A stretch of DNA of 40,317 bases, taken from the NCBI GenBank assembly GCA_036274135.1, contig DASUGG010000213.1, forward strand, positions 1 through 40,317, in the 5' to 3' direction. Positions 13,544 to 32,615 of this stretch are shown piece by piece (position 1 is the first letter of the stretch; every line of letters begins with the position of its first letter). The notes beneath the pieces were generated by a model, which saw only the letters and a list, made by a program, of their open reading frames with translations, searched no databases and was not told where the DNA came from. Position numbers and translations under genes: made by a program. The DNA is from Geminicoccaceae bacterium. GTDB lineage: Bacteria; Pseudomonadota; Alphaproteobacteria; Geminicoccales; Geminicoccaceae.

Positions 13544-14821
13544 ATGCAGCCCTCTTCGGAACGAGCCCAGGTCGAGACGCAGCTAGTCGCCTTTGTCGAA
13601 AGCCTGGAGAACCGCGTCTTCGGCTGGCGAGCGATCCATCTGCAGCTATCGCAGCTGGAGCCGCACAACCGACGCCATCTCAAGCTCCATATGGCGGTCA
13701 GCGCGTTCGGTGGCCTCCTGGAGCGCTTCAAGGGCGAACTGTTCCAGCTGTCCCACGGCGACATTTTCTATTGCTGGCACGGAGACTCCGCGGCCGAGGT
13801 TCAGCAGGTAGTGCTGGGACTTTGCTGTCTGTTCAGCGATGACCCGCTGATCAAGGCTGACGGCGATCACATAGACCCGGCGGACAACCCCGACCTTGAC
13901 GGGATTCGCGGCGGTGCGGCCATACGGCGACGCTTCTGCAGCTGGTTCGACCTCGAGTGCGAGTACGAGACGCTTTGTCTTCGCGTGCAACAGAGCGTCG
14001 TCGAGGCGGGCGGAACGGCCAAGGGCCGCAAGGCAGGCGATCGGCGTCCGCTCGATCCCTCCCAACTGGCGAGGATCGAGACGCGTCTCGAGGCGATGAG
14101 CCTCTCAGGGCTCATCCGCCGGCAACCGATTTGTGCCCTGCTCCCCGGCGCCGCACCGCGTGCCCTCTTCACGGAAGTGCACATCGCCATCCGCAAGCTG
14201 GCCGAGGTGCTCGACGTCGACCTCACCGCCGATCTCTGGCTGTTTCAGCGTCTTGGCGAGTCGCTGGACCGCCGTCTGATGTCCAGCCTGGCGCATGGCG
14301 TCAAGGACCTGGGAGGGCCGATCAGCATCAACTTGCGGCTTGCGACGCTGCTCTCTCCTGAGTTCCTGAAGTTTGACGACACCTATCGCAAGCATCGCTC
14401 AAGCTCTGTCGTCATCGAGTTGCAGCTGATCGATATCTTTGCCGAATTAGGAAGCTTTCTGTTCATTCGGGAATTCTTGCGGGCCCGAGGCTATCTGGTC
14501 TGCGTCGATGGTCTTCACTATCTCCATCTACCGTTGATTGACCGCAAGCGCCTCGGCGCCGATATGGTCAAGATCATCTGGAGCCCAGATCTGCTGGATG
14601 CGATGAACGGTGGCCAGCTCGAGGAGTTCAAGGCGGCGACCAAGCGCACGGGTGTCGACCGGGTGGTGCTGTGTCGCTGCGAGACCGCGGACGCGGTCAA
14701 CTGGGGGCAGACCGTCGGCATTCGGCTGTTTCAGGGCCACTACGTCGATTCGCTCCTGCGTGCGTCGCGTCCGGCGGCCATCGCCTCCGCGCGCAGTGCT
14801 CTCCGCAACGCCAGCTGTTAG
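13544..14821 (+). CDS. Degenerate GGDEF-like / EAL-like domain protein (probably catalytically inactive)
   Basis: 425-aa ORF. The C-terminal half follows the EAL-domain motif order with substitutions: RRQPICAL...EVHIAIR (EAL->EVH), ISINL (N kept), VVIELQL (ELTE-like), VCVDGLHY (DDFG->VDGL), MVKIIW (KID->KII), VLCRCET (EGVE->CRCE) and FQGHY (QGY kept). The N-terminal segment LSHGDIFYCW sits where a GGDEF motif would be. Confidence 0.6.
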   Translation: MQPSSERAQVETQLVAFVESLENRVFGWRAIHLQLSQLEPHNRRHLKLHMAVSAFGGLLERFKGELFQLSHGDIFYCWHGDSAAEVQQVVLGLCCLFSDDPLIKADGDHIDPADNPDLDGIRGGAAIRRRFCSWFDLECEYETLCLRVQQSVVEAGGTAKGRKAGDRRPLDPSQLARIETRLEAMSLSGLIRRQPICALLPGAAPRALFTEVHIAIRKLAEVLDVDLTADLWLFQRLGESLDRRLMSSLAHGVKDLGGPISINLRLATLLSPEFLKFDDTYRKHRSSSVVIELQLIDIFAELGSFLFIREFLRARGYLVCVDGLHYLHLPLIDRKRLGADMVKIIWSPDLLDAMNGGQLEEFKAATKRTGVDRVVLCRCETADAVNWGQTVGIRLFQGHYVDSLLRASRPAAIASARSALRNASC

Positions 14822-15074: not shown

Positions 15075-16385
15075 TCAGGCGCTTCTTGCCAGAGGTTCGG
15101 TTGGCCCGGCGGCGAGCGGCGGCACCGCCACTCCCTCCTCACCATACTGGCGAAGCCTGTTGCGCAGCGTGCGGATCGATATGCCGAGGAGAGCTGCCGC
15201 GATCGTGCGGTTGCCGGATGTGGAATGAAGCGTCTTCAGGATCAGGTCGCGCTCGACTTCGGCGACCGTCCGGCCGACCGGCGGCCAGCCACCGGGCCGG
15301 CCGGATGCCCCACTGCCGTGCAGCCCGAGGTCGTCGATGCCGATCTTGTCGCCGGTCGCCAGCAGCACCGCACGGTGGATGCAGTTCTCGAGCTCGCGGA
15401 CGTTGCCGCGCCAGTGATGGGACCGTAGGCGTGTCACCGCGGCCGTGCTGAGCGGGCGGCGGCGCAGGCCATTGATCGCCGCGTATCGCGCCGCGAAATG
15501 GCCAGCCAGCATGACGATGTCCGCGGGTCTCTGGCGCAGCGGGGGGAGGTGCAGGTTGACCACGTTCAGCCGGAACCAGAGATCTTCCCGGAATCGGCCG
15601 GCAGCGACCTCGGCTTCGAGATCGCGATTGCTCGTCGCAACCAGTCGGATATCGACCTTGATCGGAGCGGCGCTGCCCAGCGGATCGATCTCCCGCTCCT
15701 GGATCGCGCGCAGCAGCTTGGCCTGAAGGCGAGGGTGCATCTCGCTGATCTCGTCGAGCAGAAGGGTGCCCCCGTGCGCCTCCTCAAACTTGCCGACGCG
15801 GCGTGCGACGGCACCGGTGAAGGCGCCCTTCTCATGCCCGAACAGCTCCGATTCGAGAAGATTTTCGGGGATCGCGGCGCAGTTCACCGATACGAGGCGC
15901 TGATCCCGCCGGCGGCTGTGCCGATGCACATAGCGCGCCAGCATCTCCTTGCCGGTGCCACTCTCGCCGGTGATCAGCACTCCGGCATCGGAGTGGGCGA
16001 TTTGGCGCGCGACGGCGAGGAGTTGCCGCGTCGCCATATCCACCGAAACCAGCTCGCACGGATCGTGGACCGCGTCGGCGGCGAGGGCATCCACCAGTCC
16101 GGGCTCGGCCGGCAGTACCAGAAAGCCCCTTGCGCGCGCCGCGTCGGTCGCGGCTGCCAAGGCATCGGATCGGTCCGTGCCCGGACATCCGGCCGCGGCG
16201 ACGTGCCCTGATCTCGCAACGTCGGACGCCGCATCGATCAGGATTGCGTCGATATGCGGTTCGGCGAGCAGTGCCAGCCGTGCGTGCGCCAGGCTGGGCA
16301 CCTGGTGAAAGACGATGCCGGGCACCTCGAGCCGGCGCGCGCGTTCAAGCACCTCGTCGCTTGCGGCGACGATCAGGAACTGCAT
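15075..16385 (-). CDS. Sigma-54-dependent Fis-family transcriptional activator with a degenerate receiver-like N-domain
   Basis: Walker [18 protein letters not shown] (GAFTGA loop), [15 protein letters not shown], and a C-terminal [23 protein letters not shown]. The N-terminus is [11 protein letters not shown] where canonical receivers have DD. Start set at ATG 16385. Confidence 0.9.
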
Positions 16386-16704
16386 CGCAGCATCCCGGCG
16401 ATGGCGGGCCGGCAGGTCGGACGCGCCGTGGCGTGCCGCCGGCAGCACTGCACTTGCCGCCGGCCGGCTCGACGGCTCCGGCTCGGACCGTAGAGCGTGT
16501 CCAGTAACTCCGTCATCGCATCTGCTGTCGCGGGTGAACCCTGCAGGAAAACTTGATCGCAGAGTGTTCCCGTCGTCGTTAAGGATGTCTTGCGCCGCGG
16601 CGGGATGGTAGGGCGCGCAGTGCCGCGGTATCCGGGCGCGTTACGTCGTGCGGCGGAGGGCGAGCTGCACTACGCCGCATCTCTCCGGAATGAAAGTGAG
16701 GCCG

Positions 16705-16719
16705 TTAACCTTATGTTAA
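16705..16719. promoter_or_regulatory. Perfect CtrA-type box TTAA-N7-TTAA
   Basis: The sequence is TTAACCTTATGTTAA. TTAA is rare in this GC-rich window, and this is the only full TTAA-N7-TTAA I found by eye. It lies in the 570-nt intergenic region between the sigma-54 activator and the repressor gene, just upstream of the candidate sRNA. Confidence 0.4.
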
Positions 16720-16744: not shown

Positions 16745-16872
16745 GCTTGGTCGTGATGCCGATGCTCGATATCCCGAGCTACCCGGCAATCCTGCCAAGT
16801 CGATGTCCTCCCTGACGTTGTGATGCCTCCCTGTTGAATTGGCCGCCGGTTTACCGGCGGCCTCTTTGTCTG
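16745..16872 (+). ncRNA. Candidate trans-acting sRNA with two CCUCCC anti-Shine-Dalgarno motifs (5' end not defined)
   Basis: No plausible protein ORF on this strand. The hairpin 16801-16820 (CGAUGUC-CUCCCU-GACGUUG) displays CUCCCU in its loop. A second CCUCCCU at 16826-16832 is unpaired, immediately before a strong intrinsic terminator at 16841-16872. Confidence 0.35.
16841..16872 (+). terminator. Rho-independent terminator
   Basis: GGCCGCCGG-TTTA-CCGGCGGCC is a perfect 9-bp GC stem, followed by TCTTTGTCTG. On the opposite strand the stem is followed by AATTCAAC (no U tract), so plus orientation is favoured. Confidence 0.6.
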
Positions 16873-16954: not shown

Positions 16955-17596
16955 CTATTGGCTAGCCCACACGATCCGTGCCAGCCAGCTCACCTCGCCA
17001 ACCGCGTAACGTCTGGTCTCCTCGTTGTGGGCAAGAGGGGCGATCTCGACGCGCTGTGCGGTCCGGCGGAGCAGCAGGCCGACGCTCAGAGGGCCCTTGA
17101 TGGGCTTCAGCAGCACCCGGTCGTGACGGCGGATGCTGGCGCCTGGCGACGCGACCAGCAAGTCGCCGTCGCGATAGATCGGCACCATGGCATCGCCGTG
17201 GATCTCGACGGCATAGGCGTGGGGATCGTCGAGGTTGGGAAAGTCGATCTCGTCCCAATCCCCTCCCACCGGAAATCCGGCTTGGTCAAATAGGCTGGAC
17301 CGATGCGCCTGATCCAGGGCCACGCAGCGCATCCGCTGCGATGGAGGTTCGATCTTCGCTCCCGCCTCGTCCGACATCATCGCCACGAATTCTCGGAAGG
17401 GCGTTTCGGTAGCTGTCAGAATTTTCGCCAGGCTTTCGGTGCTGGGCCACCGTGGCTTGTCCTCCTTGGTGATCCGCTTGCTTGGATTGAACGTCGTGGG
17501 GTCCAGCCCGGCGCGACGTGCCAGCCCCGAAGCCGTCAAGCCGTGGTGCCTGGCGAGCCGGTCAATGCCGCGCCACACCTCGTCATGGGTGAACAT
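16955..17596 (-). CDS. CI/LexA-like repressor: N-terminal HTH plus C-terminal S24 peptidase-like domain with Ser->Ala at the nucleophile position
   Basis: MFTHDEVWRGIDRLARHHGLTASGLARRAGLDPTTFNPSKR is an XRE-type HTH. AVEIHGDAMVPIYRDGDLLVASPG sits where S24 proteins have GDSM. The C-terminus is WLARIVWASQ. Start taken at ATG 17596; the track uses TTG 17605. Confidence 0.85.
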   Translation of the reverse strand: MFTHDEVWRGIDRLARHHGLTASGLARRAGLDPTTFNPSKRITKEDKPRWPSTESLAKILTATETPFREFVAMMSDEAGAKIEPPSQRMRCVALDQAHRSSLFDQAGFPVGGDWDEIDFPNLDDPHAYAVEIHGDAMVPIYRDGDLLVASPGASIRRHDRVLLKPIKGPLSVGLLLRRTAQRVEIAPLAHNEETRRYAVGEVSWLARIVWASQ

Positions 17597-17894
17597 GGGA
17601 ATCAACCCCGACTAAGAATGCGATCCTGACCAACACTAGGAATGACCGCTGCGCTTGTCAGTAGGAACATCGGGCTATGCAGCGTCCGAAGGCGAAGCAT
17701 TCCGGCTTGCCATACAGGCATTAATTCCGCTATATCTAGATCCTTCACCGCGCGATGTGTCTGTCGCGCTTGGCGGCCTCGATCGCGCCGCTCGCGCGCC
17801 TCGCTGTTCAGGGGCGGGCTTGATCGACCCGATCGTGCGCCCCTTACGGAGGAACTTCGTGATCAGCTCGCAAGCGTCCTGCGGCCGGGTCGCC

Positions 17895-18269
17895 ATGGCC
17901 GTCTTCGTCGATGGGACCGAATGCTGTTGGCTTCGCGGACTGAGACGCGGGTTTCGCCACTGTTTCGTCGCCTTGGAACATGGCGATGCCTGGCTGGTCT
18001 GCGATTCCCTGAAGAGCCACATGGAGCTTACGCTGCTGGACCTGCCGCGCTCGGTTGATCTCGGGAGACACTATGCGGGCCAAGGTCACCGGGTCTTGAT
18101 CGGACGAACCGGCAAGCAGCCGCGACAGCGAACCCTGCCGCCGGGCCCGCTGACCTGCGTCAGCGTCGCCAAGCGGCTACTGGCGATTCGCGCGGCCCGG
18201 GTTTGGACTCCCTGGCAGCTCTTCTCCTACCTCTTGCGCCAACCGCACGTCTGGCGCCTGGTCCCCTGA
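17895..18269 (+). CDS. Hypothetical protein between the repressor and the portal gene
   Basis: This is the ORF frame of track entry 17655..18269. I start it at the internal ATG 17895 (MAVFVDGTECCWLRG...) because the upstream 240 nt are AT-richer and look non-coding. I recognised no family, and no clear RBS is present. Confidence 0.35.
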   Translation: MAVFVDGTECCWLRGLRRGFRHCFVALEHGDAWLVCDSLKSHMELTLLDLPRSVDLGRHYAGQGHRVLIGRTGKQPRQRTLPPGPLTCVSVAKRLLAIRAARVWTPWQLFSYLLRQPHVWRLVP

Positions 18270-18307: not shown

Positions 18308-18336
18308 TTGACAAGTAGGCGTTATAGGAATATAAA
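18308..18336 (+). promoter_or_regulatory. Near-consensus sigma-70-type promoter upstream of the portal gene
   Basis: TTGACA (18308-18313), a 17-nt spacer, then TATAAA (18331-18336), in a locally AT-rich patch 89 nt upstream of portal ATG 18425. A second TTGACG lies at 18301. Confidence 0.5.
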
Positions 18337-18424: not shown

Positions 18425-19957
18425 ATGGGTGATCTCTCGCTCGAGGCCGTCTGGTCGCGTTACCAGCGGGCCAAGGACCGGCGACTTCGCTGGGAAGGCC
18501 TCTGGCGGGACTGCTACACATACGTGCTGCCGCACCGTGGCGCCGGATTCGGCGCCGAGTTCGCGCCCGGTCGCAACCACGCCGAGCGGACCTTCGACGG
18601 CACGGCGCCCGACGCCGTGGAGCAACTCGCAGCCTCGCTGCTCGCCGAGCTCACGCCGCCCTGGTCGCAGTGGTTCGGCCTGGTCCCGGGACCGCAGGTT
18701 CACTCCTTCGAGCGTGGGATCCTCGCCGAAAGGCTGGACCAGGTCTCGCTGACGATTCAGGCTCATTTCGACCGTTCCAATTTTGCGGCCGAGATCCATC
18801 AGGCCTTCCTCGACCTGGTGAGCATCGGCAGCGCCACGCTCCTGTTCGAGGAAGCGCCGATCGGGGACCTCAGCGCCTTTCGGCTGACCGCGGTGCCGAT
18901 GGCCGAGATGTGGTTCGAGCCGGGGCTCAACGGTCAGATCAGCGGCCATTTTCGACAGAGCGCGCTGCCCATGGAGGCGCTCTGCGCACGGTTTCCCGAG
19001 GCAGAGCTGCCGCGCAGCCTCTTGGACGAGTGCCGGCGGCACAAGGAGCGGCATCTCGAAGTGGTCGAGGGTGTCTTGCCGGCGGGCACCGGCTACCACT
19101 ACCTCGCCATGCTTCATCACGGCACCGACCAGCCGCTGCTGCTTGCGCAGGGCCGCTTCGACAGTTCGCCCTTCATCAGCTTCCGCTGGCTCAAGGGCGC
19201 GGGCGAGGTCTACGGACGCTCACCGGTAATGACGGTGCTGCCCGACATCAAGACGGTCAACAAGGTCGTCGAACTGGTGCTCAAGAACGCCTCGATCTCG
19301 GTCACTGGGATCTGGCAGGCGGACGACGACGGCGTGCTCAATCCGGCCAACATCCAGCTAGTGCCCGGCAGCATCATACCCAAGGCGGTCGGCTCCGCCG
19401 GCCTCACGCCCTTGCAGGCGCCCGGTCGCTTCGACGTCTCGAGCCTGATGCTCGAGGAGTTGCGCGGCCGTATCCGGCATGCGTTGCTGGTCGATCGCCT
19501 CGGCGCGATCGGCAGCCGCAAGATGACCGCTACCGAGGTGCTCGAACGCAGCGCCGAAATGACCCGGCTGCTCGGCGCGACCTACGGGAGGCTCCAGGCG
19601 GAGCTGCTGACACCGCTCCTGGGCCGTGCCATGGGGATCCTGCGCCGCCGCGGCGAGATCCCTGATCTCGCCCTCGACGGTCGCCTGGTGGACCTGCACT
19701 ACAAGTCGCCGCTCGCCCGCCAGCAGGCGCAGCAGGACGTGCAAAGCACTCTGCTTTGGCTGGAGACCACCGCGAAGATGGGCGCGGAGGCGCTTGCCGC
19801 GGTCGACCTCCCCGCGACGGCGCGCTGGCTGGGTGACCGGCTGGGCGTGCCAGGCCAGCTGATCCGCGACATCGAGTCACCGAGCGCGCTCCTAGACCTG
19901 GCGGAGGACCTGGTTGCCGTGCGGCCGGAAGTGACGGAAGCGGCTGATGGACAGTGA
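18425..19957 (+). CDS. Phage portal (head-to-tail connector, podovirus type)
   Basis: 510 aa. GGAG lies 8 nt upstream of ATG 18425. The N-terminal pattern RYQRAKDRRLRWEGLWRDCYTYVLP...ERTFDGTAPDAVEQLAASLLAELTPPWSQWFGL is typical of T7 gp8-like connector proteins. Its position at the head of the structural module fits. Confidence 0.8.
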   Translation: MGDLSLEAVWSRYQRAKDRRLRWEGLWRDCYTYVLPHRGAGFGAEFAPGRNHAERTFDGTAPDAVEQLAASLLAELTPPWSQWFGLVPGPQVHSFERGILAERLDQVSLTIQAHFDRSNFAAEIHQAFLDLVSIGSATLLFEEAPIGDLSAFRLTAVPMAEMWFEPGLNGQISGHFRQSALPMEALCARFPEAELPRSLLDECRRHKERHLEVVEGVLPAGTGYHYLAMLHHGTDQPLLLAQGRFDSSPFISFRWLKGAGEVYGRSPVMTVLPDIKTVNKVVELVLKNASISVTGIWQADDDGVLNPANIQLVPGSIIPKAVGSAGLTPLQAPGRFDVSSLMLEELRGRIRHALLVDRLGAIGSRKMTATEVLERSAEMTRLLGATYGRLQAELLTPLLGRAMGILRRRGEIPDLALDGRLVDLHYKSPLARQQAQQDVQSTLLWLETTAKMGAEALAAVDLPATARWLGDRLGVPGQLIRDIESPSALLDLAEDLVAVRPEVTEAADGQ

Positions 19958-20213
19958 TCGCCAGCCGAGCGGCTGGTCCTGGTTCGAGGCGCGCGAAGAA
20001 GCGTCGCCCGATCCTGGCGAGACGTCGCTCTGCCGGGCCTTCGCGCGATGCTTCTCGGGACCCGAGGGGCAGCAGGCCCTGGCTCACCTGAGGCGGCGGA
20101 TTCTCGATCGAAGGCTCGGGCCGAGCGCCACCGACGCCGAGCTCTGGTACCTCGAAGGTCAGCGCGGCGCGATTGCGTATGTGCTCGGCATGATCGAGCG
20201 CGGCGGCCGCTGA
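19947..20213 (+). CDS. Bbp19-like small phage protein
   Basis: 88 aa, overlapping the portal stop by 11 nt. AFARCFSGPEGQQALAHLRRRIL...LEGQRGAIAYVLGMI resembles the Bbp19 family pattern (tF.sPeG..VL.dL...reGrr.v...I) found after the portal in BPP-1-like phages. Confidence 0.55.
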   Translation: MDSDRQPSGWSWFEAREEASPDPGETSLCRAFARCFSGPEGQQALAHLRRRILDRRLGPSATDAELWYLEGQRGAIAYVLGMIERGGR

Positions 20214-20229
20214 TCCGCCGCTTCGGCAA

Positions 20230-21051
20230 ATGACAACCTCGACTTTAGGGGCGACGATGATCGAGCAGGAACTGCAGGCAGAAGAGGGCACGGTCGAATC
20301 CGATGTCGAAGCAGCGGCCGCCGCCGTGGCCGAGCCCGATCCGGATGCCTCGCTCGAGCCGAAGCCTTCACGTCCGGCCGGGGTGCCGGAGAAGTTCTGG
20401 GACCGAGAGGCGGGCTGCGTTCGCACCGACGCTCTCCTGAAGTCGTACCTCGAGATCGAGCGCAAGCTCGGGTCGATGATCGCGCTGCCGGCGGACGATG
20501 CCGACCTTGATGGCCGCAGACGCCTCCACCGGGCACTCGGTGTACCCGAAAGCCCGGACGGCTATCAGATCGCGGCGCGAAGCGCTCTTCTGGAGCCGGC
20601 TGCAGAGATCAATGCGAAGCTCCATGCTGCCGGGTTCACCCCGCAACAGGCGCAGCTGGTCTACGACCTGGCGGCTGACCATCTGCTGCCGTTGGTGGAC
20701 GAGCTGCTCGATGAGTTCGGCTCGGCGCACGACTCCGAGCGTCTTGCCCATCGCTTCGGCGGCACCGAAGCCTGGCGGGCTCTGGCCCCCCAGATCAAGA
20801 CGTGGGGCCGCGCCAATCTTTCGGACAAAGTCTTCGCCACGCTGTCGGCCAGCTATGATGGCGTGCTCGCGATGCATCAGATGATGCAGGCGCGCGAGCC
20901 GGCGGTGCTGCATGACGGCGAAGGTCCGCAAGCCGCGCTCGACGAGGCCGCGCTCGGCCAGATGATGCGCGATCCGCGCTACTGGCGAGACCGCGATCCG
21001 CAGGTGATCGCGAAGGTGACCGAGGGCTTTCGGCGCCTCTATCCGGCATAG
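20230..21051 (+). CDS. Probable capsid scaffolding protein
   Basis: 273 aa, acidic and alanine-rich, helical-looking, with the VPEKFWDRE...LLKSYLEIERKLG motif common in podovirus scaffold proteins. It occupies the gp9 position. An alternative start at ATG 20257 is preceded by AGGGG. Confidence 0.6.
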   Translation: MTTSTLGATMIEQELQAEEGTVESDVEAAAAAVAEPDPDASLEPKPSRPAGVPEKFWDREAGCVRTDALLKSYLEIERKLGSMIALPADDADLDGRRRLHRALGVPESPDGYQIAARSALLEPAAEINAKLHAAGFTPQQAQLVYDLAADHLLPLVDELLDEFGSAHDSERLAHRFGGTEAWRALAPQIKTWGRANLSDKVFATLSASYDGVLAMHQMMQAREPAVLHDGEGPQAALDEAALGQMMRDPRYWRDRDPQVIAKVTEGFRRLYPA

Positions 21052-21135
21052 CAGATCAGGGCCGCGGCGCTCCGCGGCACCCGATGTTCAACCTCTGTGG
21101 AGCCGGCCGGTGGGCCGGTGCCGAAGGAGACGTTC

Positions 21136-21498
21136 ATGGCGAGACTCCGGCGCAAGGGCCTCGGCACAACCGAGCTGGTTCGCGACAACGACGGCGCCAA
21201 GATGCCGATCATGCCCTGGGGCAAGGTGCACAACCTGGCCGCGACCGAGGCGACAGCGGCGCGCAACGCGACCGCGATCTCGGCCACCTGCGGTGTGGTC
21301 AGCATCGTCGCGATCGGCGGCAGCGCGCACTTCAAGCAGGGCAATTCGAGCGTCGTGGCAACCACCAGCGACGCTTACCTTCCGGAAGGCGAGTGGCACG
21401 AGCTGCCCGTCTTCGAGGGCGCCGACTGGAGCTACGTGTCGATCCTGTCTGCGGCCGGTTCCGGCAACATCGTGGCGCAGATCTGCGAGCGGCAATAG
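21136..21498 (+). CDS. Small phage protein of unknown function
   Basis: 120 aa. The strong RBS GAAGGAGA lies 5 nt upstream of ATG 21136. Composition looks beta-rich. I recognised no family. Confidence 0.5.
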   Translation: MARLRRKGLGTTELVRDNDGAKMPIMPWGKVHNLAATEATAARNATAISATCGVVSIVAIGGSAHFKQGNSSVVATTSDAYLPEGEWHELPVFEGADWSYVSILSAAGSGNIVAQICERQ

Positions 21499-21501
21499 GC
21501 A

Positions 21502-22269
21502 ATGACCGCGCTTGGCCTTCGGCCCTCTGGACGGCTTGCCTTAAGCTCAAGGCGCCGGCGTGGCGCCGCAGCGCCGCCGGAATCGCCGGATCAGATCAGC
21601 TCTCTCGCGTTCTGGTATGACGCGGAAGCCAGTCCCACGATCGAGGCCAGCGGCGTGATCGAGCGCTGGGACGATTTGAGCGGCAACGCGAACCACGCCG
21701 ACCAGACGGTCAGCAGCGAGCGCCCGGTCAAGGCGACCGATGGTCAAGGTCGCCACGTCATCCGGTTTGACGGGATAGACGATACGCTCGCGGTCGCGAG
21801 CCCGCCGGATCTCGCGGCAGGCATGACGCTGTTCGCCGTGTTCGCGGTACGTACGCGCAGCGATTTCTCCGGCGTCGTCTCGGCCGCCGCCACCACCGGC
21901 GTCGACCACGAGGCGTTCTTCAGCCTGCAGAACGCAAGCGCGGCGAGTGAGCAGTTTCAATGGATCGGCAAATCCGCTGGCGCGGATCCTCTGCTGATCG
22001 GACGTGACGACAACGTAACCGCCGGTCTCGCGATCCTGACGGCGGCCGCTGGCAACGCTCTGTTCGAGGACCTCGACGGCCAAGGTTCGGACACCTACGA
22101 CGGATCGTTCGGGAGGCCAGACCAGATCGTCCTTGCCGGTCACTACGACGAAGGAACCTACGGCTACAGCGCCATCGACGTCTATGAGGTCGGGCTCTAT
22201 GCCCGCGCCCTCACGGCGGGAGAGAGGGGCGTGCTGCAGGGCTATCTCAGGAACAAGTACGGGTTCTAG
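21502..22269 (+). CDS. LamG/concanavalin-A-like lectin domain protein
   Basis: SSLAFWYDAEASPTIEASGVIERWDDLSGNANHADQTVSSERPVKATDGQGRHVIRFDGIDDTL is the characteristic Laminin_G_3 opening (L.lW.DA.d...v..W.D.SGngn.a.Q....P......FdG.dD.L). Confidence 0.7.
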   Translation: MTALGLRPSGRLALSSRRRRGAAAPPESPDQISSLAFWYDAEASPTIEASGVIERWDDLSGNANHADQTVSSERPVKATDGQGRHVIRFDGIDDTLAVASPPDLAAGMTLFAVFAVRTRSDFSGVVSAAATTGVDHEAFFSLQNASAASEQFQWIGKSAGADPLLIGRDDNVTAGLAILTAAAGNALFEDLDGQGSDTYDGSFGRPDQIVLAGHYDEGTYGYSAIDVYEVGLYARALTAGERGVLQGYLRNKYGF

Positions 22270-22271
22270 GT

Positions 22272-23561
22272 ATGGTTGATCGCACGCCACAGGAGTTCGG
22301 CGGAGTTCCCGACGGAGTCACGGACAGTACGGCGGCGATTCAGGCCGCCATCGATGCCGCGGGAGCGTCGGGCGACGACGTCTTGATCGCCGGCGGCATC
22401 TTCCGGACCAGTGGGCAACTGAATTGCCCGCACGGCGCACTGCGCATCAAGGGCGATGGCGGTATTCAGGCGCTGAGCGGCGCCTGGCCGAGCCAAGCGG
22501 CGATCCTGGCGATCACCGGAAGCGGCGTCGTCGTCGATGGTGACGGTCTGTTGCTCGATCAGGCCAACGTGATCCCCGAGGGCTACAGCTTGCGGGGAAC
22601 CGGGGCGGTCGGGCTGACGATGTCAGGCTTGATCTCGCGCAATTCGCAAGGCGCCTTCCTGTTGCTCGACGATGGTTGCACCGACGTGCTGGTGCACGAC
22701 ATCCACCATCGCGGCAGCGGCTATGGAATCCTCGCCGCGGACCCGCAGAGCCTGGCCCGGATCGAGATTCGCGACAGCGATTTCGAGCACGCCGGAACAG
22801 GCCCGACCGGCGACGGGATTCAGCTCAATTGCGCAACGCATGGTGGCGACGACGTCGAGGTCACCGGCGTCACGGTGCGCGGCTACATCGGTGAGTCGGT
22901 CGGCCACGGCAGTGGCTTCGGCTTCGCAGGGGTGACGAACACGCGCCTGTTCGGTTGCATTGCCGAACTCTGCGAAAGCGATGGCTTCCGGTGGCAGCAG
23001 CAGAGCAACGATACGGTTGCCTTCAACTGCCGCGCGTTGAACTGCGGCAGGCCCGATCACGTCAACGACTGCGGCTCCGGCTTCATCGTGTACGACTCCA
23101 GCCGTTGGCACGGCGAGAGCCTCCTGGCCGTCGGCTGCTGGTACCATGGGATCGCGCTGAGCGGACAAAACAGCGTATCTCACCCCGCGGACAACGTGAT
23201 CGTCCGCTGCAGCGCTCTCGACATCGGCCGCGACTGCTTCCACTTCACCGCGCAGGCCCGGGCCGTGATCACCCGTTGCCATGCTCGCGATCCCTCGCGA
23301 AGCAGCGACGGCGGTTACGCCGCCTATCATCTCGCGAGACAAGGTGGCGCGACGCTCGAGAACGTCGACTGCACGGGCGACAGCAACACGGTCATCTCCA
23401 CCGGCGCCACCACGCCGCTCGGCGACACGGTCGTGCGACCAGAAAGTGTCAACTGCCTGGTCAACGGCATCAGCGGCGGTACCGCGGTAGCGCGCGTCAC
23501 GGAGGATGGGGCGATTCGCCTGACGGAATCGGGCGAGGAGCGCCTGCTCGAAGCGGCTTAG
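22272..23561 (+). CDS. Right-handed beta-helix (pectate-lyase-3-like) protein, possible tailspike/depolymerase
   Basis: The N-terminus FGGVPDGVTDSTAAIQAAIDAAGASGDDVLIAGGIF is the Pectate_lyase_3 opening motif, followed by repetitive G/D/N-rich beta-helix-like repeats. It lacks a T7-type particle-binding N-domain. Confidence 0.7.
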   Translation: MVDRTPQEFGGVPDGVTDSTAAIQAAIDAAGASGDDVLIAGGIFRTSGQLNCPHGALRIKGDGGIQALSGAWPSQAAILAITGSGVVVDGDGLLLDQANVIPEGYSLRGTGAVGLTMSGLISRNSQGAFLLLDDGCTDVLVHDIHHRGSGYGILAADPQSLARIEIRDSDFEHAGTGPTGDGIQLNCATHGGDDVEVTGVTVRGYIGESVGHGSGFGFAGVTNTRLFGCIAELCESDGFRWQQQSNDTVAFNCRALNCGRPDHVNDCGSGFIVYDSSRWHGESLLAVGCWYHGIALSGQNSVSHPADNVIVRCSALDIGRDCFHFTAQARAVITRCHARDPSRSSDGGYAAYHLARQGGATLENVDCTGDSNTVISTGATTPLGDTVVRPESVNCLVNGISGGTAVARVTEDGAIRLTESGEERLLEAA

Positions 23562-23790
23562 CGAAGGCGACGTCATCGGGTCGCCTCGTCGATCTCGCCG
23601 CAAGATTTGCCGGTCGAAGCAGCGGACCAACCCGCGCCCAGGAGCGGGCCCGCCCGAACTCGACCCGCCGAGGTGGAGCGCATCCACCGAGACCGCGGCC
23701 CGCCCGGGCGGATGGAACGGCGAAAGCCACCCCGTACGGTGCGGACCAACCGCGCGTCGTCTCTCGGTACACACCCACGGAGGGACGAAC

Positions 23791-24609
23791 GTGTCCACGA
23801 CGATCGACCAAGCTTTCATCAAGCAGTTCGAGGAAGAGGTCCATCAGGCCTATCAGCGGATGGGGTCGAAGCTGCGCAATACCGTTCGCATGAAGAACGG
23901 GGTTCGCGGCAGCTCGACCGTGTTCCAGAAGGTCGGCAAGGGCAGTGCCGCGACCAAGGCGCGGCATGGCAAGGTGCCGGTCATGAACGTCGACCACACG
24001 CCGGTCGAGTGCCAGCTGCTCGACTTCTATGCCGGTGACTGGGTCGACCATCTGGACGAGCTCAAGACCAACATCGACGAGCGCCAGGTGCTCGCCAATG
24101 CCGGGGCCTTCGCCCTGGGCCGTAAGACCGACGAGCTGATCATCCAGGCGCTCGATGCCACCACCAACCTCGCCGGCACCGGCGCCGACGGGCTGACCAA
24201 GGCCAAGGTGCTGACGGCCTTCGAGCTGCTCGGCAACAAGGACGTTCCCGACGACGGCCAGCGCTTTGCGGTGATCGGCTGGAAGCAGTGGTCGGATCTG
24301 CTCGAGCTGCCGGAGTTCGCCGATGCCGACTTCGTCGGCCCGGACGAGCTGCCGTGGCGGGGGACCCAGGCGAAGCGCTGGCTCGGCACCCTCTGGTTGC
24401 CGCATTCCGGTCTGAAGCTCAGCAGCGGGGTTCGTACCTGCTTCTGGTACCACCGCAGCGCCATCGGCCACGCCATCGGTCAGGAGGTTGCGACCGACGT
24501 GACCTGGCATGGCGACCGCGCCGCTCACTTCGTGTCCAACTCGATGAGCCAGGGCGCATGCCTGATCGATGCCGACGGCGTCGTCGAGATCCCCTGCCTG
24601 GAGAGCTGA
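23791..24609 (+). CDS. Major capsid protein (N4-gp56/BPP-1-type HK97-fold family)
   Basis: 272 aa. GTG start with GGAGGGA 6 nt upstream. IKQFEEEVHQAYQRMGSKLRNTVR...FQKVGKGSA...HTPVECQLLDFYAGDWVDHLDELK...WYHRSAIGHA is typical of this capsid family. It occupies the gp10 position. Confidence 0.8.
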   Translation: MSTTIDQAFIKQFEEEVHQAYQRMGSKLRNTVRMKNGVRGSSTVFQKVGKGSAATKARHGKVPVMNVDHTPVECQLLDFYAGDWVDHLDELKTNIDERQVLANAGAFALGRKTDELIIQALDATTNLAGTGADGLTKAKVLTAFELLGNKDVPDDGQRFAVIGWKQWSDLLELPEFADADFVGPDELPWRGTQAKRWLGTLWLPHSGLKLSSGVRTCFWYHRSAIGHAIGQEVATDVTWHGDRAAHFVSNSMSQGACLIDADGVVEIPCLES

Positions 24610-24611
24610 GC

Positions 24612-24881
24612 ATGGCCTACTCGTCCAAGAACCTGAGTGCCCTCGCCTACGCCAACGGCTTCACCTTGTGGCACTACAAGACGTCCGACCTCGCGCTGGA
24701 GGTCGATACCACTGGCTATTTCAACGGCGCGGCAACAATGCTGCGTGCCGGTGACTTCATCATGGCCAACACCAACACCAGCGGCACGGTGCAAAGCGGC
24801 ATGTTCATCGTGAAGTCGAACAGCGGCACGGTCGTCGATGTCGCCAACATCGCCGACTTCGGTTCGGTGAATACCGACTAG
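24612..24881 (+). CDS. Small conserved phage protein following the capsid gene (possible decoration/cement protein)
   Basis: 90 aa. ATG lies 2 nt after the capsid stop. LSALAYANGFTLWHYKTSD...TGYFNGAATMLRAGDFIMANT resembles hypothetical proteins that follow this capsid type in alphaproteobacterial podovirus-like prophages. Function unproven. Confidence 0.55.
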   Translation: MAYSSKNLSALAYANGFTLWHYKTSDLALEVDTTGYFNGAATMLRAGDFIMANTNTSGTVQSGMFIVKSNSGTVVDVANIADFGSVNTD

Positions 24882-24933
24882 ATCCTCCGCATCCCCACCC
24901 GACGCGCGACAGCGCGGAAGCCCTTACCAGTGT

Positions 24934-24964
24934 CCGGGCGAGCGACGATCAGCGGCTCGCCCGG
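24934..24964 (+). terminator. GC-rich hairpin downstream of the capsid/90-aa genes (possible attenuating terminator or RNA processing site)
   Basis: CCGGGCGAGC-gacgatcagcg-GCTCGCCCGG is a 10-bp perfect stem. No U tract follows, so it is not a canonical intrinsic terminator. Confidence 0.3.
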
Positions 24965-25034
24965 CCTGGCCCTCCTTTCGCGGCATCCGCTGGCCCCTAT
25001 GGCCACGCGTCGGCCACATTCCTCGGAGACGGCC

Positions 25035-25406
25035 ATGCCCAGACTGCTCGCCATTGTCTTAACGATCTTCATCACATCGACGCCGGCGGCTCGGCTCGCA
25101 GCTGAGCCGGTGGGGGCAAAAGCGGTCTGTCCCGGCATTGCCTTGACGTTGTTCGAGCATCTGCTTCCGAGCGAGGTCCGACGCTATCCTTTCGAGCACG
25201 CATTGCTCGAGCCGTTCGTCCAGCTGTGGCAGTCCGGTTCGCGGCCTGCCCTGCCGGTGATGCCCGAGCGCGTCACGGTCTATGCGGTGCCCGACCATCC
25301 GTTGCTCGTCGGCTATCAGAGCGGTGCCTGCGTGATCGCATCACTCGCCATCGATCGCGAACGCCTCGTGAGCTGGCTTGGGCCGCGCATCGGTTGGACG
25401 ATCTAA
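25035..25406 (+). CDS. Small secreted protein (moron-like insertion in the structural module)
   Basis: 123 aa. GGAGA lies 5 nt upstream of ATG 25035. The N-terminal signal-peptide-like MPRLLAIVLTIFITSTPAARLAAEP is present. I recognised no virion-protein motif. Confidence 0.45.
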   Translation: MPRLLAIVLTIFITSTPAARLAAEPVGAKAVCPGIALTLFEHLLPSEVRRYPFEHALLEPFVQLWQSGSRPALPVMPERVTVYAVPDHPLLVGYQSGACVIASLAIDRERLVSWLGPRIGWTI

Positions 25407-25459
25407 GGCGGCGCGGCTCGGCTTCTCCCGTCTGTATTCAGCGTGAAGGACCGTCAGTC

Positions 25460-26032
25460 ATGGCTCTCAGCAGTATCGAGCTGTGCTCTAGTGCCCTCGT
25501 CAAGCTCGGCGCCGAAGACATCAGCTCGTTCGACGACGGCAGCGCCGAGGCACGCGTCGCATCGCGGCTTTACCCGTTGGCGCGCGATGCGCTGCTCTCG
25601 ACCCATCCATGGTCGTTCGCAACGCGTCAGGCCGCCCTGGCGCGCCTGGCCACGGTCCCGACCACGACCTTCGCCTACGCCTACCAGCTACCGAACGACT
25701 ACCTGAAAGCCCTGTCTGCGGGCGACGGAGGGCGTGGTAGCGGCCTGGTCTTCCAGATCGTCGGGCGGCAGCTCCACACGGATGCCGAAGCCCCCGCGCT
25801 CACCTATATCTTTCGTCCGAGCGAGGGCGACTTCCCGCCCTATTTCAGCGCGGCGCTGGTGGCCCGACTCGCAGCCGAGTTCTGCCTTCCCCTGACCGAG
25901 AACTCCAGCCGCGCCGAGCGCCTGTCCCGTCTCGCCGATGCCGAGCTCAAGCTCGCGAAGCTGGTCGACAGCCAGCAGGATACGCCGCCGCGGGTCGAGG
26001 ACTTCACCCTGATCCGGGCGCGCTTCGCATGA
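25460..26032 (+). CDS. Head-tail adaptor / tail tubular protein A-like (T7 gp11 position and size)
   Basis: 190 aa. GAAGGA lies upstream of ATG 25460. IELCSSALVKLGAEDISSFDDGSAEARVASRLYPLARDALLSTHPWSFA is the pattern seen at the N-terminus of podovirus adaptor proteins. Confidence 0.55.
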   Translation: MALSSIELCSSALVKLGAEDISSFDDGSAEARVASRLYPLARDALLSTHPWSFATRQAALARLATVPTTTFAYAYQLPNDYLKALSAGDGGRGSGLVFQIVGRQLHTDAEAPALTYIFRPSEGDFPPYFSAALVARLAAEFCLPLTENSSRAERLSRLADAELKLAKLVDSQQDTPPRVEDFTLIRARFA

Positions 26033-27933
26033 CCCGGGCTTTCCTGGCGCAGACGAACTTCACCGCCGGTGAGCTTGACCCGCGGCTGCTCGGACGGACC
26101 GATCTCAAGTCGTACGAGAACGGTGCGGCCAGGCTGCGCAACGTCGTGGTCGATACAACCGGAGGCGCCCGGCGCCGCCCCGGCATGGCCTATGTCGCCA
26201 CCGCTCCGGGCGAGGGCCGGCTCGTGGCGTTGGAGACCGGCCCCTCTCAAGCTTTCCTGCTCGTGTTCACCGAGTTCCGGATCGACATCTATCGCGACGG
26301 GATCTGGCGAGCGATGGTCGCCGCTCCCTGGTCGGGGGCACAGCTGTCGCAAATCGTCTGGGCGCAGCAGAAGGATGATCTCCTCATCATTCATCCAGAC
26401 ATTCCGCCGCAGCGGTTGAGCCATGAGGGCGATGCCGCATGGAGCATCGAGGAGTGGCGTTTCGAAGAGAAGACCGATGGCGCGCTCTGCGCTCCGTTCG
26501 CGCGCTTTGCCGACACCGACGTGGAGATCCAGGCATCGGCGACGAGCGGCGCGATCACCTTGACCACCTCGGCGCCGCACTTCGTCGGCCAGCATCTCGG
26601 CGTACGCCTGCGCATCGAGGGTAAGCAGGTCGAGCTGACCAACATCCAGTCCACGACCGAGGCGGACGCCTTGGTGATCCAGACCCTCACCAGCACCGGT
26701 CCCACCAAGAATTGGGAAGAACTTGCATTCAGCGAAGCGCGTGGCTGGCCTGTAGCGCTCAGCTTCCACCAGAACAGGTTCGTGATCGGCGGCTCCCGAG
26801 ATCTGCCCAACGCTCTCTGGTTCTCGAGATCGGGCCGGTTCTTCGATTTCGACACGGGCGAGGGTCTCGATGACGAGGCGATCGTATTCCGCCTGGCCGC
26901 CAACGACGACCCGGCCATCCGGGCGCTCGTGTCGGGTCGAAGCCTGCAGGTGTTCACGAGCGTCGGTGAGTGGGTGGTGTCGGGCGACCCCCTCACGCCC
27001 ATCAATATTCAGGTCGAGCAACAGAGTAGGATCGGGTCGCCGCGCCACCGCCAGGTGCCGCCGGTCGATGTCGACGGTGCGACCATGTTCGTCGCACGGA
27101 ATGGCCGCGAGATCCGTGAGTTTCTGTTCACCAGCGTCGAGGACGCCTACCAGGCCACAGATCTGGCGCTCCTTGCCAGGCATCTGGTGATGGATCCGGC
27201 GGATCAGGCCTTCGATCAGGGCCGCCGCCTCTTCCTGATCGCGATGGCGGACGGCTCGCTCGCGGCCATCGCAATCTACCGCAATGCGGACGTCGTTGCT
27301 TGGAGCCTGCAGGAGACCGACGGCCGGGTGTTGTCGGTAGCGATGCTGGACGGACAGGCGATGCTGCTGGTCGCACGGGCCAACGGCGTGTTCATCGAGC
27401 GATTCGACGACACCCTGCTCGTCGACTCGGGCCGTCGCTTCAGCAGCCCGCAGCCCGGCCTCGTCTGGGAGGGCTTGGATCATCTCGAAGGCCAGCAGGT
27501 TGCGGTCGTCGCGGACGAGCAGGTCGTGGAGCCGGCGACCGTCACCGGCGGCGCGATCATGCTTGGCGCACCGGCGCGTACGGTCGTCGCTGGCCTGCCC
27601 TACACGCACATCATCGAGCCCATGCCGGCTGTGCTGACGGCCGGCGGCGCCGGCGGGCAGGATCCGCCCTATCGGCCGGTCCGGATCACGCTGCGGCTGC
27701 TGGCGACGCAAAACCTTTGCATCGACACCGGCGGGGGCTTGCGGGACTTGCCGCTGCACGCGGTAGGCGAAGGTCCGACGGACCGCAGCCCCGCTCCATT
27801 CACGGGCGACCGCTCGGTGCGTGCGCTCGGATGGCGACGCGGCGCGGCGCAACCGCCCTGGCGGATCGAGCAGGCCGCACCGTTGCCCTGCACATTGCTC
27901 TCAGCAACCACGGAAGTGAAGGTGAACAGCTGA
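26029..27933 (+). CDS. Tail tubular protein B / nozzle-like (T7 gp12 position)
   Basis: 634 aa. Its start overlaps the upstream stop (ATGA). The N-terminus is NFTAGELDPRLLGRTDLKSYENGAARLRNVVVDTTGGARRRPG. Size and position fit a nozzle protein. Confidence 0.6.
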   Translation: MTRAFLAQTNFTAGELDPRLLGRTDLKSYENGAARLRNVVVDTTGGARRRPGMAYVATAPGEGRLVALETGPSQAFLLVFTEFRIDIYRDGIWRAMVAAPWSGAQLSQIVWAQQKDDLLIIHPDIPPQRLSHEGDAAWSIEEWRFEEKTDGALCAPFARFADTDVEIQASATSGAITLTTSAPHFVGQHLGVRLRIEGKQVELTNIQSTTEADALVIQTLTSTGPTKNWEELAFSEARGWPVALSFHQNRFVIGGSRDLPNALWFSRSGRFFDFDTGEGLDDEAIVFRLAANDDPAIRALVSGRSLQVFTSVGEWVVSGDPLTPINIQVEQQSRIGSPRHRQVPPVDVDGATMFVARNGREIREFLFTSVEDAYQATDLALLARHLVMDPADQAFDQGRRLFLIAMADGSLAAIAIYRNADVVAWSLQETDGRVLSVAMLDGQAMLLVARANGVFIERFDDTLLVDSGRRFSSPQPGLVWEGLDHLEGQQVAVVADEQVVEPATVTGGAIMLGAPARTVVAGLPYTHIIEPMPAVLTAGGAGGQDPPYRPVRITLRLLATQNLCIDTGGGLRDLPLHAVGEGPTDRSPAPFTGDRSVRALGWRRGAAQPPWRIEQAAPLPCTLLSATTEVKVNS

Positions 27934-28352
27934 TGGGTGCTCTCAGCAGCCTTGCCACGACCGGCCTCAGCCTCGCGCTGTCCCAGCAGGCTGCCAGTGG
28001 CCGGACCCGCGATGCGCGCCAGGAGCGCGACCGCAGAATCGAGGAGATCCAGGCCCGTAACCGTGAGGAGAGCCGCAGGCGACGGGAGGAACTGCGACGG
28101 CGCCTCGCTGCCGAGCGGGCGCGTGCGGGCGCCGCCGGCGTGGCGACCAGCGGCGGATCTTCCGATGCCGTTCTGCGCGGGCTCGTGGAGGAAGCCGACA
28201 GGGCCGACCAGGCCGCCGCCGGCTCGGTGCGCCGGCAGATCAGCGAGCTGCGGCGGAACGCCAACAGGACGCGACGCAACAGCCTGCTCGACCTCGCGGG
28301 CGATGTCGCCGGCGGCGTGTTCGGCGGCTCCGGCCGTTCGTCGCTGCTCTAG
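27933..28352 (+). CDS. Arg/Glu-rich coiled-coil protein (possible small internal virion protein)
   Basis: 139 aa. ATG overlaps the nozzle stop (TGATG). It has a hydrophobic N-terminus, an RDARQERDRRIEEIQARNREESRRRREELRRRLAAERARA segment and a Gly-rich C-terminus. Confidence 0.5.
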   Translation: MGALSSLATTGLSLALSQQAASGRTRDARQERDRRIEEIQARNREESRRRREELRRRLAAERARAGAAGVATSGGSSDAVLRGLVEEADRADQAAAGSVRRQISELRRNANRTRRNSLLDLAGDVAGGVFGGSGRSSLL

Positions 28353-28398
28353 ACGGTCGTCCGGCACGCCGCGAATCCAGCAACGAGGCTAGGAGCCC

Positions 28399-30633: not shown

Positions 30634-30640
30634 CCCGCCA

Positions 30641-32152: not shown

Positions 32153-32231
32153 TCCAGGGCGCCTCGCCGCGTCGCTCGCGCGCGAGATGCCCTCGAGATC
32201 GAGCCGCACTTCATGATCGGGAGGAAATCAG

Positions 32232-32615
32232 GTGGGCGAGGAATGGAGCATCAGCTGGATGTGGTGGACGACGGCGGTCGAGGTGCCGGTGCTCGGTTGC
32301 ATGTTTTGGTTGATCCATCATGGCCGTCGCGAGGCTGAGCGCGCGCTGCTCAGGATCTACCGCGAGATCCAGGGAAACCTGAACATGGTCCTGGACAACC
32401 TCGCCCAGTCCAAGCTCGAAACCGCGCGCTTCTACGCCACGGTGACCGACCTCAAGGATGTCGAGCAGCGCCTGACCGACCACCTCCTGCGCCTTGAGAC
32501 GCGGCTTACCTACCAGCCTCCGACGCCATCGGGTGGCACGCCGCCAGACTGGTCGCGGCCCCCGGTCGAGACACGCCGCGAGCCGCAGAAGAAGGTCGAT
32601 TTCGATGCTGCGTGA
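32232..32615 (+). CDS. Membrane-anchored coiled-coil protein (holin/spanin-like position)
   Basis: 127 aa. GGGAGGAA lies 7 nt upstream of GTG 32232. It has a single N-terminal TM segment (WWTTAVEVPVLGCMFWLI), then a coiled-coil-like segment and a Pro-rich tail. Confidence 0.5.
   Translation: MGEEWSISWMWWTTAVEVPVLGCMFWLIHHGRREAERALLRIYREIQGNLNMVLDNLAQSKLETARFYATVTDLKDVEQRLTDHLLRLETRLTYQPPTPSGGTPPDWSRPPVETRREPQKKVDFDAA

Follow-up and report, generated by a model that had tools for sequence, protein, structure and literature searches.

Replacement of the autocleavage residues in a CI/LexA-type regulator beside a T7-like structural gene cluster of Alphaproteobacteria

How does a bacterium switch on a set of resident phage genes when the regulator at their edge seems unable to cleave itself? 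The question is raised by a 40,317-nucleotide stretch of a Geminicoccaceae genome (contig DASUGG010000213.1 of assembly GCA_036274135.1), here called the window, in which the gene for a CI/LexA-type regulator lies divergent from a cluster of T7-like structural genes. An earlier reading of the letters alone, referred to below as the sequence-only reading, had proposed that the regulator lost its catalytic serine and probably its lysine. The comparisons presented here indicate that catalysis has almost certainly been lost, and that a whole lineage has probably disconnected the cluster from the DNA-damage control seen in related bacteria. The positions on which the argument turns are the following.

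16955-17596, minus strand: regulator gene, ATG at 17596, 213 residues; Cro/CI-type helix-turn-helix (HTH) at about residues 1-75, a linker, and an S24-like domain at about residues 101-213
17303-17317, minus strand: former cleavage-site region LDQAH, residues 94-98; catalytic relatives have LAQAG with an Ala-Gly scissile bond
17180-17200, minus strand: HGDAMVP, residues 133-139, with Ala136 at the position of the Ser nucleophile
17078-17080, minus strand: codon of Gly173, at the position of the Lys general base (LexA K156, UmuD K97)

The minus-strand open reading frame (ORF) spans 16955-17605, and its start was placed at the ATG at 17596 by homology, as homologues all open with MFTH. Peptidase_S24 (PF00717) of Pfam matches residues 122-209 (E 8.2e-07, 29.2 bits against a cut-off of 23.3), and PHROG_4, a transcriptional repressor family, is matched as well; for the N-terminal 83 residues there is a sub-threshold match only, to a Cro/C1-type HTH (HTH_26, E 0.0019). 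NCBIfam has no model for the regulator, for its neighbor orf204 or for the structural genes. A single-sequence phmmer search of the regulator against the PDB gave only a chance match to a UvrB fragment, and a family profile was needed instead. In an AlphaFold model built with 34 homologues (mean predicted confidence, pLDDT, 84.7) the N-terminal domain is helical and the C-terminal domain rich in beta-strands. The best matches of this model among solved structures, as found by Foldseek, are LexA, the lambda CI C-terminal domain, UmuD' and phage 186 CI, each with a probability of 1.00, and when the model is taken over its full length, the structure of complete 186 CI (2fjr) is one of the closest in fold (E 6.9e-06). 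The regulator is a sequence and structural homologue of the S24 (LexA/CI/UmuD) fold, and the HTH-plus-S24 layout assigned by the sequence-only reading holds.

Two alignments place the determinants of autocleavage, which in self-cleaving S24 proteins are a Ser in the motif G-D/E-S-M, a Lys base some 37 residues farther on and an Ala-Gly or Cys-Gly scissile bond in the linker. When the family profile was aligned to solved structures in the PDB, UmuD Ser60 (GDSM) fell on regulator position 136, and the Lys base (UmuD Lys97; LexA Lys156, which is Ala in the K156A chain 1jhe) fell on Gly173, a residue invariant in the clade. Direct alignment with the regulator's own catalytic relatives (43-55% identity), which was counted as the stronger evidence, sets SGDSM(E/L)P against HGDAMVP and VMAK(Q/E)L against LSVGLL, and aligns the Ala-Gly site LAQAG with LDQAH, where the window has Ala97-His98. 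The window regulator keeps neither the scissile bond nor the Ser nor the Lys; in their places it has A97-H98, A136 and G173. Both substitutions suspected by the sequence-only reading are confirmed in this way: the serine has become Ala (GDSM to GDAM; codon GCC on the minus strand, plus-strand positions 17189-17191), and the lysine position, which had been left as Gly or Leu, is Gly173. Its statement that related alphaproteobacterial HTH-S24 proteins carry GDSM also holds for the relatives just mentioned. Four independent soil metagenome runs yielded contigs that span the codons of Ala136 and of Gly173, and a comparison table, which shows the best-supported differences only, has no entry at either codon.

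Among the 120 closest homologues (65-100% identity, nearly all full-length at 213 residues), position 136 reads A51/G21/S20/D11, position 98 is E, H, G or D, and Gly173 is present in 120/120. No Lys is conserved in their C-terminal domain, and its sole invariant Ser, Ser150, is found in the catalytic relatives too and is taken to be structural because it is equally conserved there. With no invariant Lys and a Ser150 common to the catalytic relatives, no alternative Ser/Lys dyad is visible elsewhere in the domain. The two-domain layout and the C-terminal beta-fold are common to the regulator and to LexA, lambda CI and UmuD (MEROPS family S24), and relatives at about 50% identity keep the canonical Ala-Gly, the GDSM Ser and the Lys; the window regulator, with all three replaced, would in MEROPS terms be a non-peptidase homologue. 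It also differs from LexA in its DNA-binding domain, which is a winged helix in LexA and a Cro/CI-type HTH here. A homologue from a metagenome-assembled genome of Bradyrhizobium sp. (locus L091) has AQAG and the Lys intact and reads SGDAMKP, with Ser replaced by Ala as the only change, which is due either to a recent inactivation of independent origin or to an error in the assembly.

How widely and how long ago was the dyad lost? The regulator family is found widely among Alphaproteobacteria (at least 594 stretches of GTDB species genomes match it), and both Ser and Lys are kept in 20 of 150 representatives (50% clustering of 1,610 hits at E <= 0.001). Ninety-two genome loci were scored for the cleavage site, the dyad and linkage to the T7-like cluster. 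Twenty-five are linked to the cluster with Ala-Gly, Ser and Lys intact, and include Azospirillum, Magnetospirillum, Telmatospirillum, Defluviicoccus, Terasakiella, Paeniroseomonas and Pseudoroseomonas, while 13 are linked to it with the dyad lost and come from uncultured soil Alphaproteobacteria, Geminicoccaceae and Marivibrio. Most of the cluster-less loci (Hyphomicrobiales, Parvibaculum) are intact, and additional loci fetched by means of the terminase and capsid genes show the same two states. In a neighbor-joining tree, the window and all 13 lost-dyad, cluster-linked loci form a single long-branched clade; a few further losses fall outside it and are independent. Within the clade, the former Ser position drifts among A, G, D, H and V, the Lys position is Gly or Arg, and the Ala-Gly substrate site is gone in most members. 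Tree and residue counts thus argue for an old, clade-wide loss of the dyad followed by drift at position 136, and not for the recent point mutation suggested by the single nucleotide that separates the Ala codon from one for Ser; nor is Ala fixed in the cluster-linked orthologues, as had been considered. The ratio of nonsynonymous to synonymous substitution rates (dN/dS) within the clade lies at 0.09-0.25, whether the entire gene or just its C-terminal domain is considered, so the S24 domain is maintained in its dead form. The residues W204, R207 and W210 of the C-terminal strand are conserved in dead and catalytic forms alike, a pattern that would fit a retained dimer interface.

A second connection to the SOS response is found in the DNA upstream of the regulator, where these features lie.

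17633-17667, minus strand: putative regulator promoter, -35 CTGACA (17661-17656), 17-nucleotide spacer, -10 TAGTGT (17638-17633); conserved across loci
17707-17735, plus strand: putative divergent promoter toward orf204, TTGCCA-N17-CTATAT, from sequence
17859-18269, plus strand: orf204, probable start GTG at 17859 (the database gene call starts at TTG 17820); Cys/His-rich
18308-18336, plus strand: predicted portal-operon promoter, near-consensus TTGACA-N17-TATAAA

The consensus of the alphaproteobacterial LexA box is GTTC-N7-GTTC (PMC12700426). Fifteen of the 25 catalytic, cluster-linked loci carry such a box at -92 to -109 from the regulator ATG, perfect in eight (L014, L015, L030, L032, L035, L036, L037, L082) and with one mismatch in seven (L018-L020, L024, L025, L028, L031), and one more has a perfect box at -207. 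In loci parsed by hand (e.g. L018, L037) the box overlaps, on the opposite strand, the -10 hexamer of the orf204-directed promoter. The background is 0.008 boxes per 300 nucleotides. Perfect boxes occur in 2/46 cluster-less catalytic loci, and a box occurs in 1/13 lost-dyad loci (L008), where it is placed differently. Nowhere in the 40 kb of the window is there a perfect GTTC-N7-GTTC, and one-mismatch boxes in it are at chance level (29 against 23 expected). The window's clade has therefore been left without cleavage site, dyad and LexA box together, whereas orthologues in the same synteny keep Ala-Gly, Ser and Lys. This joint loss lends independent comparative support to the uncoupling from RecA and SOS that the sequence-only reading had drawn as a consequence.

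Turning to the sites at which the regulator may act, the motif TTCCTA occurs five times in the window, and three of the copies are within the regulator and portal promoter regions. Two are in the regulator promoter, 25 nucleotides apart (17662-17667 and 17637-17642); the third, as the reverse complement TAGGAA, is at 18325-18330 in the spacer of the portal promoter, beside its -10. The TTGACA hexamer and most of an AGGnATATAA block of the portal promoter are invariant in 10 loci, and related loci have TTGACA-N17-CTATAT at the equivalent of the orf204-directed promoter. Upstream of most genes of the regulator family, cluster-less ones included, stands TATAATTCCTA(T/G). Since TTCCTA is conserved in both promoters and upstream of most family genes, it is proposed as the operator core of the family. 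In the cluster-less catalytic members of the Hyphomicrobiales the element is nearly invariant as (C/T)TATAATTCCTA(T/G), 40-90 nucleotides upstream of the regulator homologue (L041, L049, L052, L057, L061, L074, L075, L083, L084, L087-L089 and others), and the cluster-less loci L046, L048, L054, L055 and L063 have an inverted TAGGAA partner nearby. GTTC-N7-GTTC was considered as the regulator's own operator and judged unlikely, given that only 2/46 cluster-less catalytic members, with a closely similar HTH, have a perfect box and that TATAATTCCTA is common there.

The reading that we favor, at a probability of roughly 0.6, is that the regulator is a non-cleavable, dimeric CI-type repressor that acts at TTCCTA sites on its own promoter and on the portal operon, and whose links to SOS have been removed. 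The S24 domain would have been turned into a non-enzymatic dimerization module of a LexA/CI-family transcription factor. The dimer would bind TTCCTA sites, two of which overlap its own promoter and one of which lies inside the portal promoter; binding at the latter would hold the particle genes off, and the regulator's own promoter would also be repressed. The ancestral state, which would still be present in Azospirillum, Magnetospirillum and others, would respond to SOS in two ways, by self-cleavage of the repressor and by way of a LexA box over the operon promoter. In the window's clade both links would have been removed, and the repressor would not cleave itself on RecA filaments. Because neither self-cleavage nor a LexA box is left, DNA damage would no longer directly de-repress the cluster. 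Release could come through another input, such as an antirepressor or protease (orf204 is one candidate), host proteolysis or some other signal.

Four points weigh against this reading. Members of the regulator family occur with no phage cluster within 10 kb, and the family may have other or additional targets. The operator assignment draws on motif conservation only, and TTCCTA abuts a TATAAT-like hexamer in the family, so that its conservation may in part be that of promoter sequence. The TTCCTA site upstream of the orf204-directed promoter sits where an activator could bind. Lastly, a LexA-controlled antirepressor outside the 40 kb window could keep the coupling to SOS indirectly.

The last of these points leads to the best placed of the alternatives, although an unlikely one: indirect SOS control, in which a LexA-repressed antirepressor elsewhere in the genome would bind the non-cleavable repressor and inactivate it, as with Tum of 186, AntC of N15 and the Gifsy phages. 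Non-cleavable CI-type repressors (186 CI with Tum, N15 CB, Gifsy GfoR/GtgR) remain inducible by other means, and the antirepressor is their established route (PMC3121763); the resemblance of the model to 186 CI, noted above, supports such a route. The absence of a perfect box from the window, the chance level of one-mismatch boxes and the absence from this locus of the LexA box of the catalytic relatives all speak against it. The comparison with these phages is instructive in other respects. Their repressors are not cleaved on induction, and the window regulator is likewise without autocleavage determinants. In 186, Gifsy and N15, a LexA box before the antirepressor gene keeps the control by SOS, whereas neither a box nor a recognizable antirepressor was found in the window. 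The Gifsy repressors are short and have no C-terminal domain, whereas the window regulator keeps the domain as a pseudo-enzyme. Finally, what is controlled in 186, N15 and Gifsy is a complete inducible prophage, and in the window a structural-only chromosomal cluster flanked by host genes.

It is less probable again that the regulator is not the cluster's repressor at all, and is instead an activator or a general host regulator that merely lies beside it. In Hyphomicrobiales and Parvibaculum the catalytic family is widely distributed at loci that lack a phage cluster within 10 kb, which would suit such a role; so would the one TTCCTA that immediately precedes the -35 of the promoter toward orf204, a place typical of an activator. 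Against these stand the adjacency and divergent orientation of regulator and cluster, which 38 genome loci from several families have in common while their other flank varies, the repressor-like position of TTCCTA in the spacer and -10 region of the portal promoter, and a locus architecture that matches CI/Cro-type switches. That the regulator is still a peptidase with another nucleophile and base, as the invariance in the clade of Ser150 and Arg156/157/177/178 might suggest, or a decaying pseudogene, as its long branches might, is very improbable, as Ser150 is no less conserved in catalytic relatives, no Lys of the C-terminal domain is conserved and the Ala-Gly substrate is gone in most members, and as a pseudogene is excluded by the 213-residue frame kept in nearly all 120 closest homologues together with the dN/dS of 0.09-0.25.

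If a non-cleavable repressor holds the cluster off, as we favor, one candidate to relieve it is the adjacent orf204, whose place is invariably between regulator and portal and which encodes about 136-149 residues. It belongs to no Pfam, NCBIfam or PHROG family. Its invariant residues include His47, Cys48, Cys61 and Cys113, the last of which opens a predicted helix. A fold search of the PDB gave no significant match (best E 0.27); the significant fold matches are all to uncharacterized proteins of uncultured tailed phages (best E 8e-06, TM-score 0.70). Weak, non-significant resemblances make a permuted papain-like peptidase or amidase possible; other conceivable roles of orf204 are those of antirepressor and lysis enzyme. 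The ImmR/ImmA system offers a likeness in that it too pairs a non-self-cleaving HTH repressor with a conserved small gene, and orf204, with its invariant His and Cys, could in principle encode a peptidase. The ImmR partner is a COG2856/HEXXH metalloprotease, however, whereas orf204 lacks a HEXXH motif, belongs to neither a Pfam nor an NCBIfam family and matches none of the solved structures significantly, and an ImmA-like metalloprotease was rejected for it. A further difference is that orf204 is also present where the repressor is still self-cleaving, and because it accompanies both intact and dead regulators, orf204 alone cannot explain the loss of the dyad.

In loci of the catalytic clade, orf204 and the portal gene are separated by a further small ORF, rich in Arg (motif ...RRRRGR.G.IATS.RGVL...LLGE), seen in L011, L014, L015, L024, L035, L037, L053, L059, L068, L076, L077 and L080. 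It is missing from the window and from most of its clade, where the strong portal promoter stands in its place; Marivibrio (L011), a lost-dyad locus, keeps the ORF.

The cluster itself consists of the following genes.

18425-32615, plus strand: T7-like structural-only cluster of about 14 kb, divergent from the regulator and adjoining orf204
18425-19957, plus strand: portal, from ATG 18425 (PF12236, E 3e-128)
20230-21051, plus strand: T7-type scaffold
21097-21498, plus strand: unknown protein
21502-22269, plus strand: virion protein
22272-23561, plus strand: beta-helix tailspike-like protein
23791-24609, plus strand: major capsid
25226-26032, plus strand: tail tubular A
26029-27933, plus strand: tail tubular B
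27937-28392, plus strand: unknown protein
28399-30633, plus strand: fiber
30620-32152, plus strand: large terminase
32232-32615, plus strand: small conserved ORF

Host genes lie on both sides, namely ampG-like, anmK and Tad pilus genes after about 32.6 kb and an flbD orthologue on the other side. No tRNA, integrase, replication gene or recognizable lysis gene was found in the cluster and its flanks within the window, and Rfam gave no match in the window. A complete prophage was rejected for want of these four kinds of gene, a satellite or phage-inducible chromosomal island because there is no integrase or replication module, and a tailocin because capsid, portal and terminase are present. The order regulator, orf204, portal, scaffold and onward is kept in relatives down to 51% identity, in which the far flank changes to unrelated metabolic genes. 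Minimal clusters span 8.5-10 kb, counted from the regulator as far as the beginning of the terminase gene. In the complete genome of Defluviicoccus vanus, the genes on the flanks are transposase genes and others of ordinary cellular function. At least 197 species genomes, for the most part of Rhodospirillales, proved to carry the cluster in a scan with the terminase. When the window is compared with its closest relatives, synonymous divergence (dS) is 0.4-0.9 for the structural genes and 0.45-0.94 for the flanking flbD, ampG and anmK, and the omega of the structural genes is 0.06-0.16. By this signature the cluster is a domesticated, vertically inherited element, as are gene transfer agents (GTAs). 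At least 598 contigs of IMG/VR carry its capsid gene; among the 80 listed, nearly all are shorter than 23 kb and two measure 34-36 kb, and no complete phage genome is among those 80.

With structural genes and a large terminase only, vertical inheritance and a presence in at least 197 species genomes, the cluster looks like a GTA. It resembles RcGTA-type clusters in being a head-tail-terminase set of roughly 12-15 kb with no replication, integration or recognizable lysis genes, and likewise in its fixed chromosomal site, its divergence together with flanking host genes and its purifying selection. RcGTA is built from HK97-like siphovirus genes, however, and the window cluster from those of a T7-like podovirus (PF12236 portal, T7 scaffold, tail tubular A and B). 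Control differs as well, by CtrA and GafA in RcGTA and probably by a CI/LexA-type repressor here. CtrA control of the cluster was rejected, as the sole perfect TTAA-N7-TTAA box (16705-16719) lies on the flbD side, outside the cluster promoters. The sequence-only reading had regarded a repressor that cannot cleave itself as expected for a domesticated element. That explanation fails, since lineages with an intact repressor carry the same structural-only cluster, which is equally domesticated there; domestication is not confined to the lost-dyad clade.

A broader picture, more tentative than the proposal for the repressor itself, is that of a hitherto undescribed GTA-like family derived from a T7-like podovirus, inherited vertically in Rhodospirillales and relatives (at least 197 species genomes) and ancestrally wired twice to SOS, which would have been rewired to a non-SOS trigger in the window's clade through loss of the cleavage site, the dyad and the LexA box and gain of the portal promoter; the SOS-wired version may be the source of particles known from Azospirillum. 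A genome paper (PMC3899980) reports that particles which mitomycin C induces in Azospirillum lipoferum strains and in Azospirillum sp. B510 enclose random host DNA of about 10 kb; they are regarded there as GTAs and were attributed to RcGTA-like genes on weak similarity. Among other Azospirillum species that were scanned, A. oryzae, A. endophyticum, A. formosense and A. himalayense carry the SOS-wired T7-like cluster, which, speculatively, is an alternative candidate source of such particles. No description of a T7-like GTA, or of a conserved T7-like cluster in Rhodospirillales, Azospirillum or Magnetospirillum, was found in the literature.

Catalytically dead S24 domains, non-cleavable CI-type repressors and the S24-like fold of 186 CI are already known. 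The novelty lies in three things: a documented conversion that took in a whole clade, within a conserved module whose intact form survives elsewhere; the disappearance of the LexA box alongside it; and the kind of element that is controlled. One module in two forms, the first with an autocleaving repressor and a LexA box and the second with all of these removed and the protein conserved, amounts to a natural evolutionary comparison. It makes testable how a domesticated phage element changes its induction signal, and what an S24 domain does once it is no longer an enzyme. The widespread structural-only T7-like cluster may, in addition, be a new kind of GTA in soil and aquatic Alphaproteobacteria; if true, this bears on horizontal gene flow there.

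Several smaller observations concern the cluster and its surroundings. Two of its proteins are beta-helix or pectate-lyase-like, one encoded at 22272-23561, between scaffold and capsid, and the other at 28399-30633, where the domain is fused to a T7 tail-fiber N-terminal domain; their sequences suggest polysaccharide-degrading receptor-binding proteins. The fiber is absent from minimal clusters. In Defluviicoccus vanus Ben 114 (L126, 12367-12741), a homologue of the cell-cycle regulator GcrA (PF07750, E 2e-31) lies directly downstream of the terminase, a position taken in most other loci by the small conserved ORF that starts at 32232 in the window (g32232). On the far side of the regulator, 15075-16448 encodes an FlbD-type sigma-54 activator, whose match to NF050807 scores 516 bits and so falls short of the equivalog cut-off of 750. 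The neighboring gene (13544-14821) encodes an EAL-like protein that scores 21.7 bits against a Pfam threshold of 31.3, and its domain may be degenerate. The 500-nucleotide gap between flbD and the 3' end of the regulator gene holds the CtrA-type box mentioned above, TTAACCTTATGTTAA, the sole perfect one in the window, and, at 16841-16862 on the plus strand, a terminator-like hairpin, GGCCGCCGG-TTTA-CCGGCGGCC, followed by a T-rich tail and without a match in Rfam. Together, box and hairpin may point to the promoter region of flbD or to a small transcript from the plus strand.

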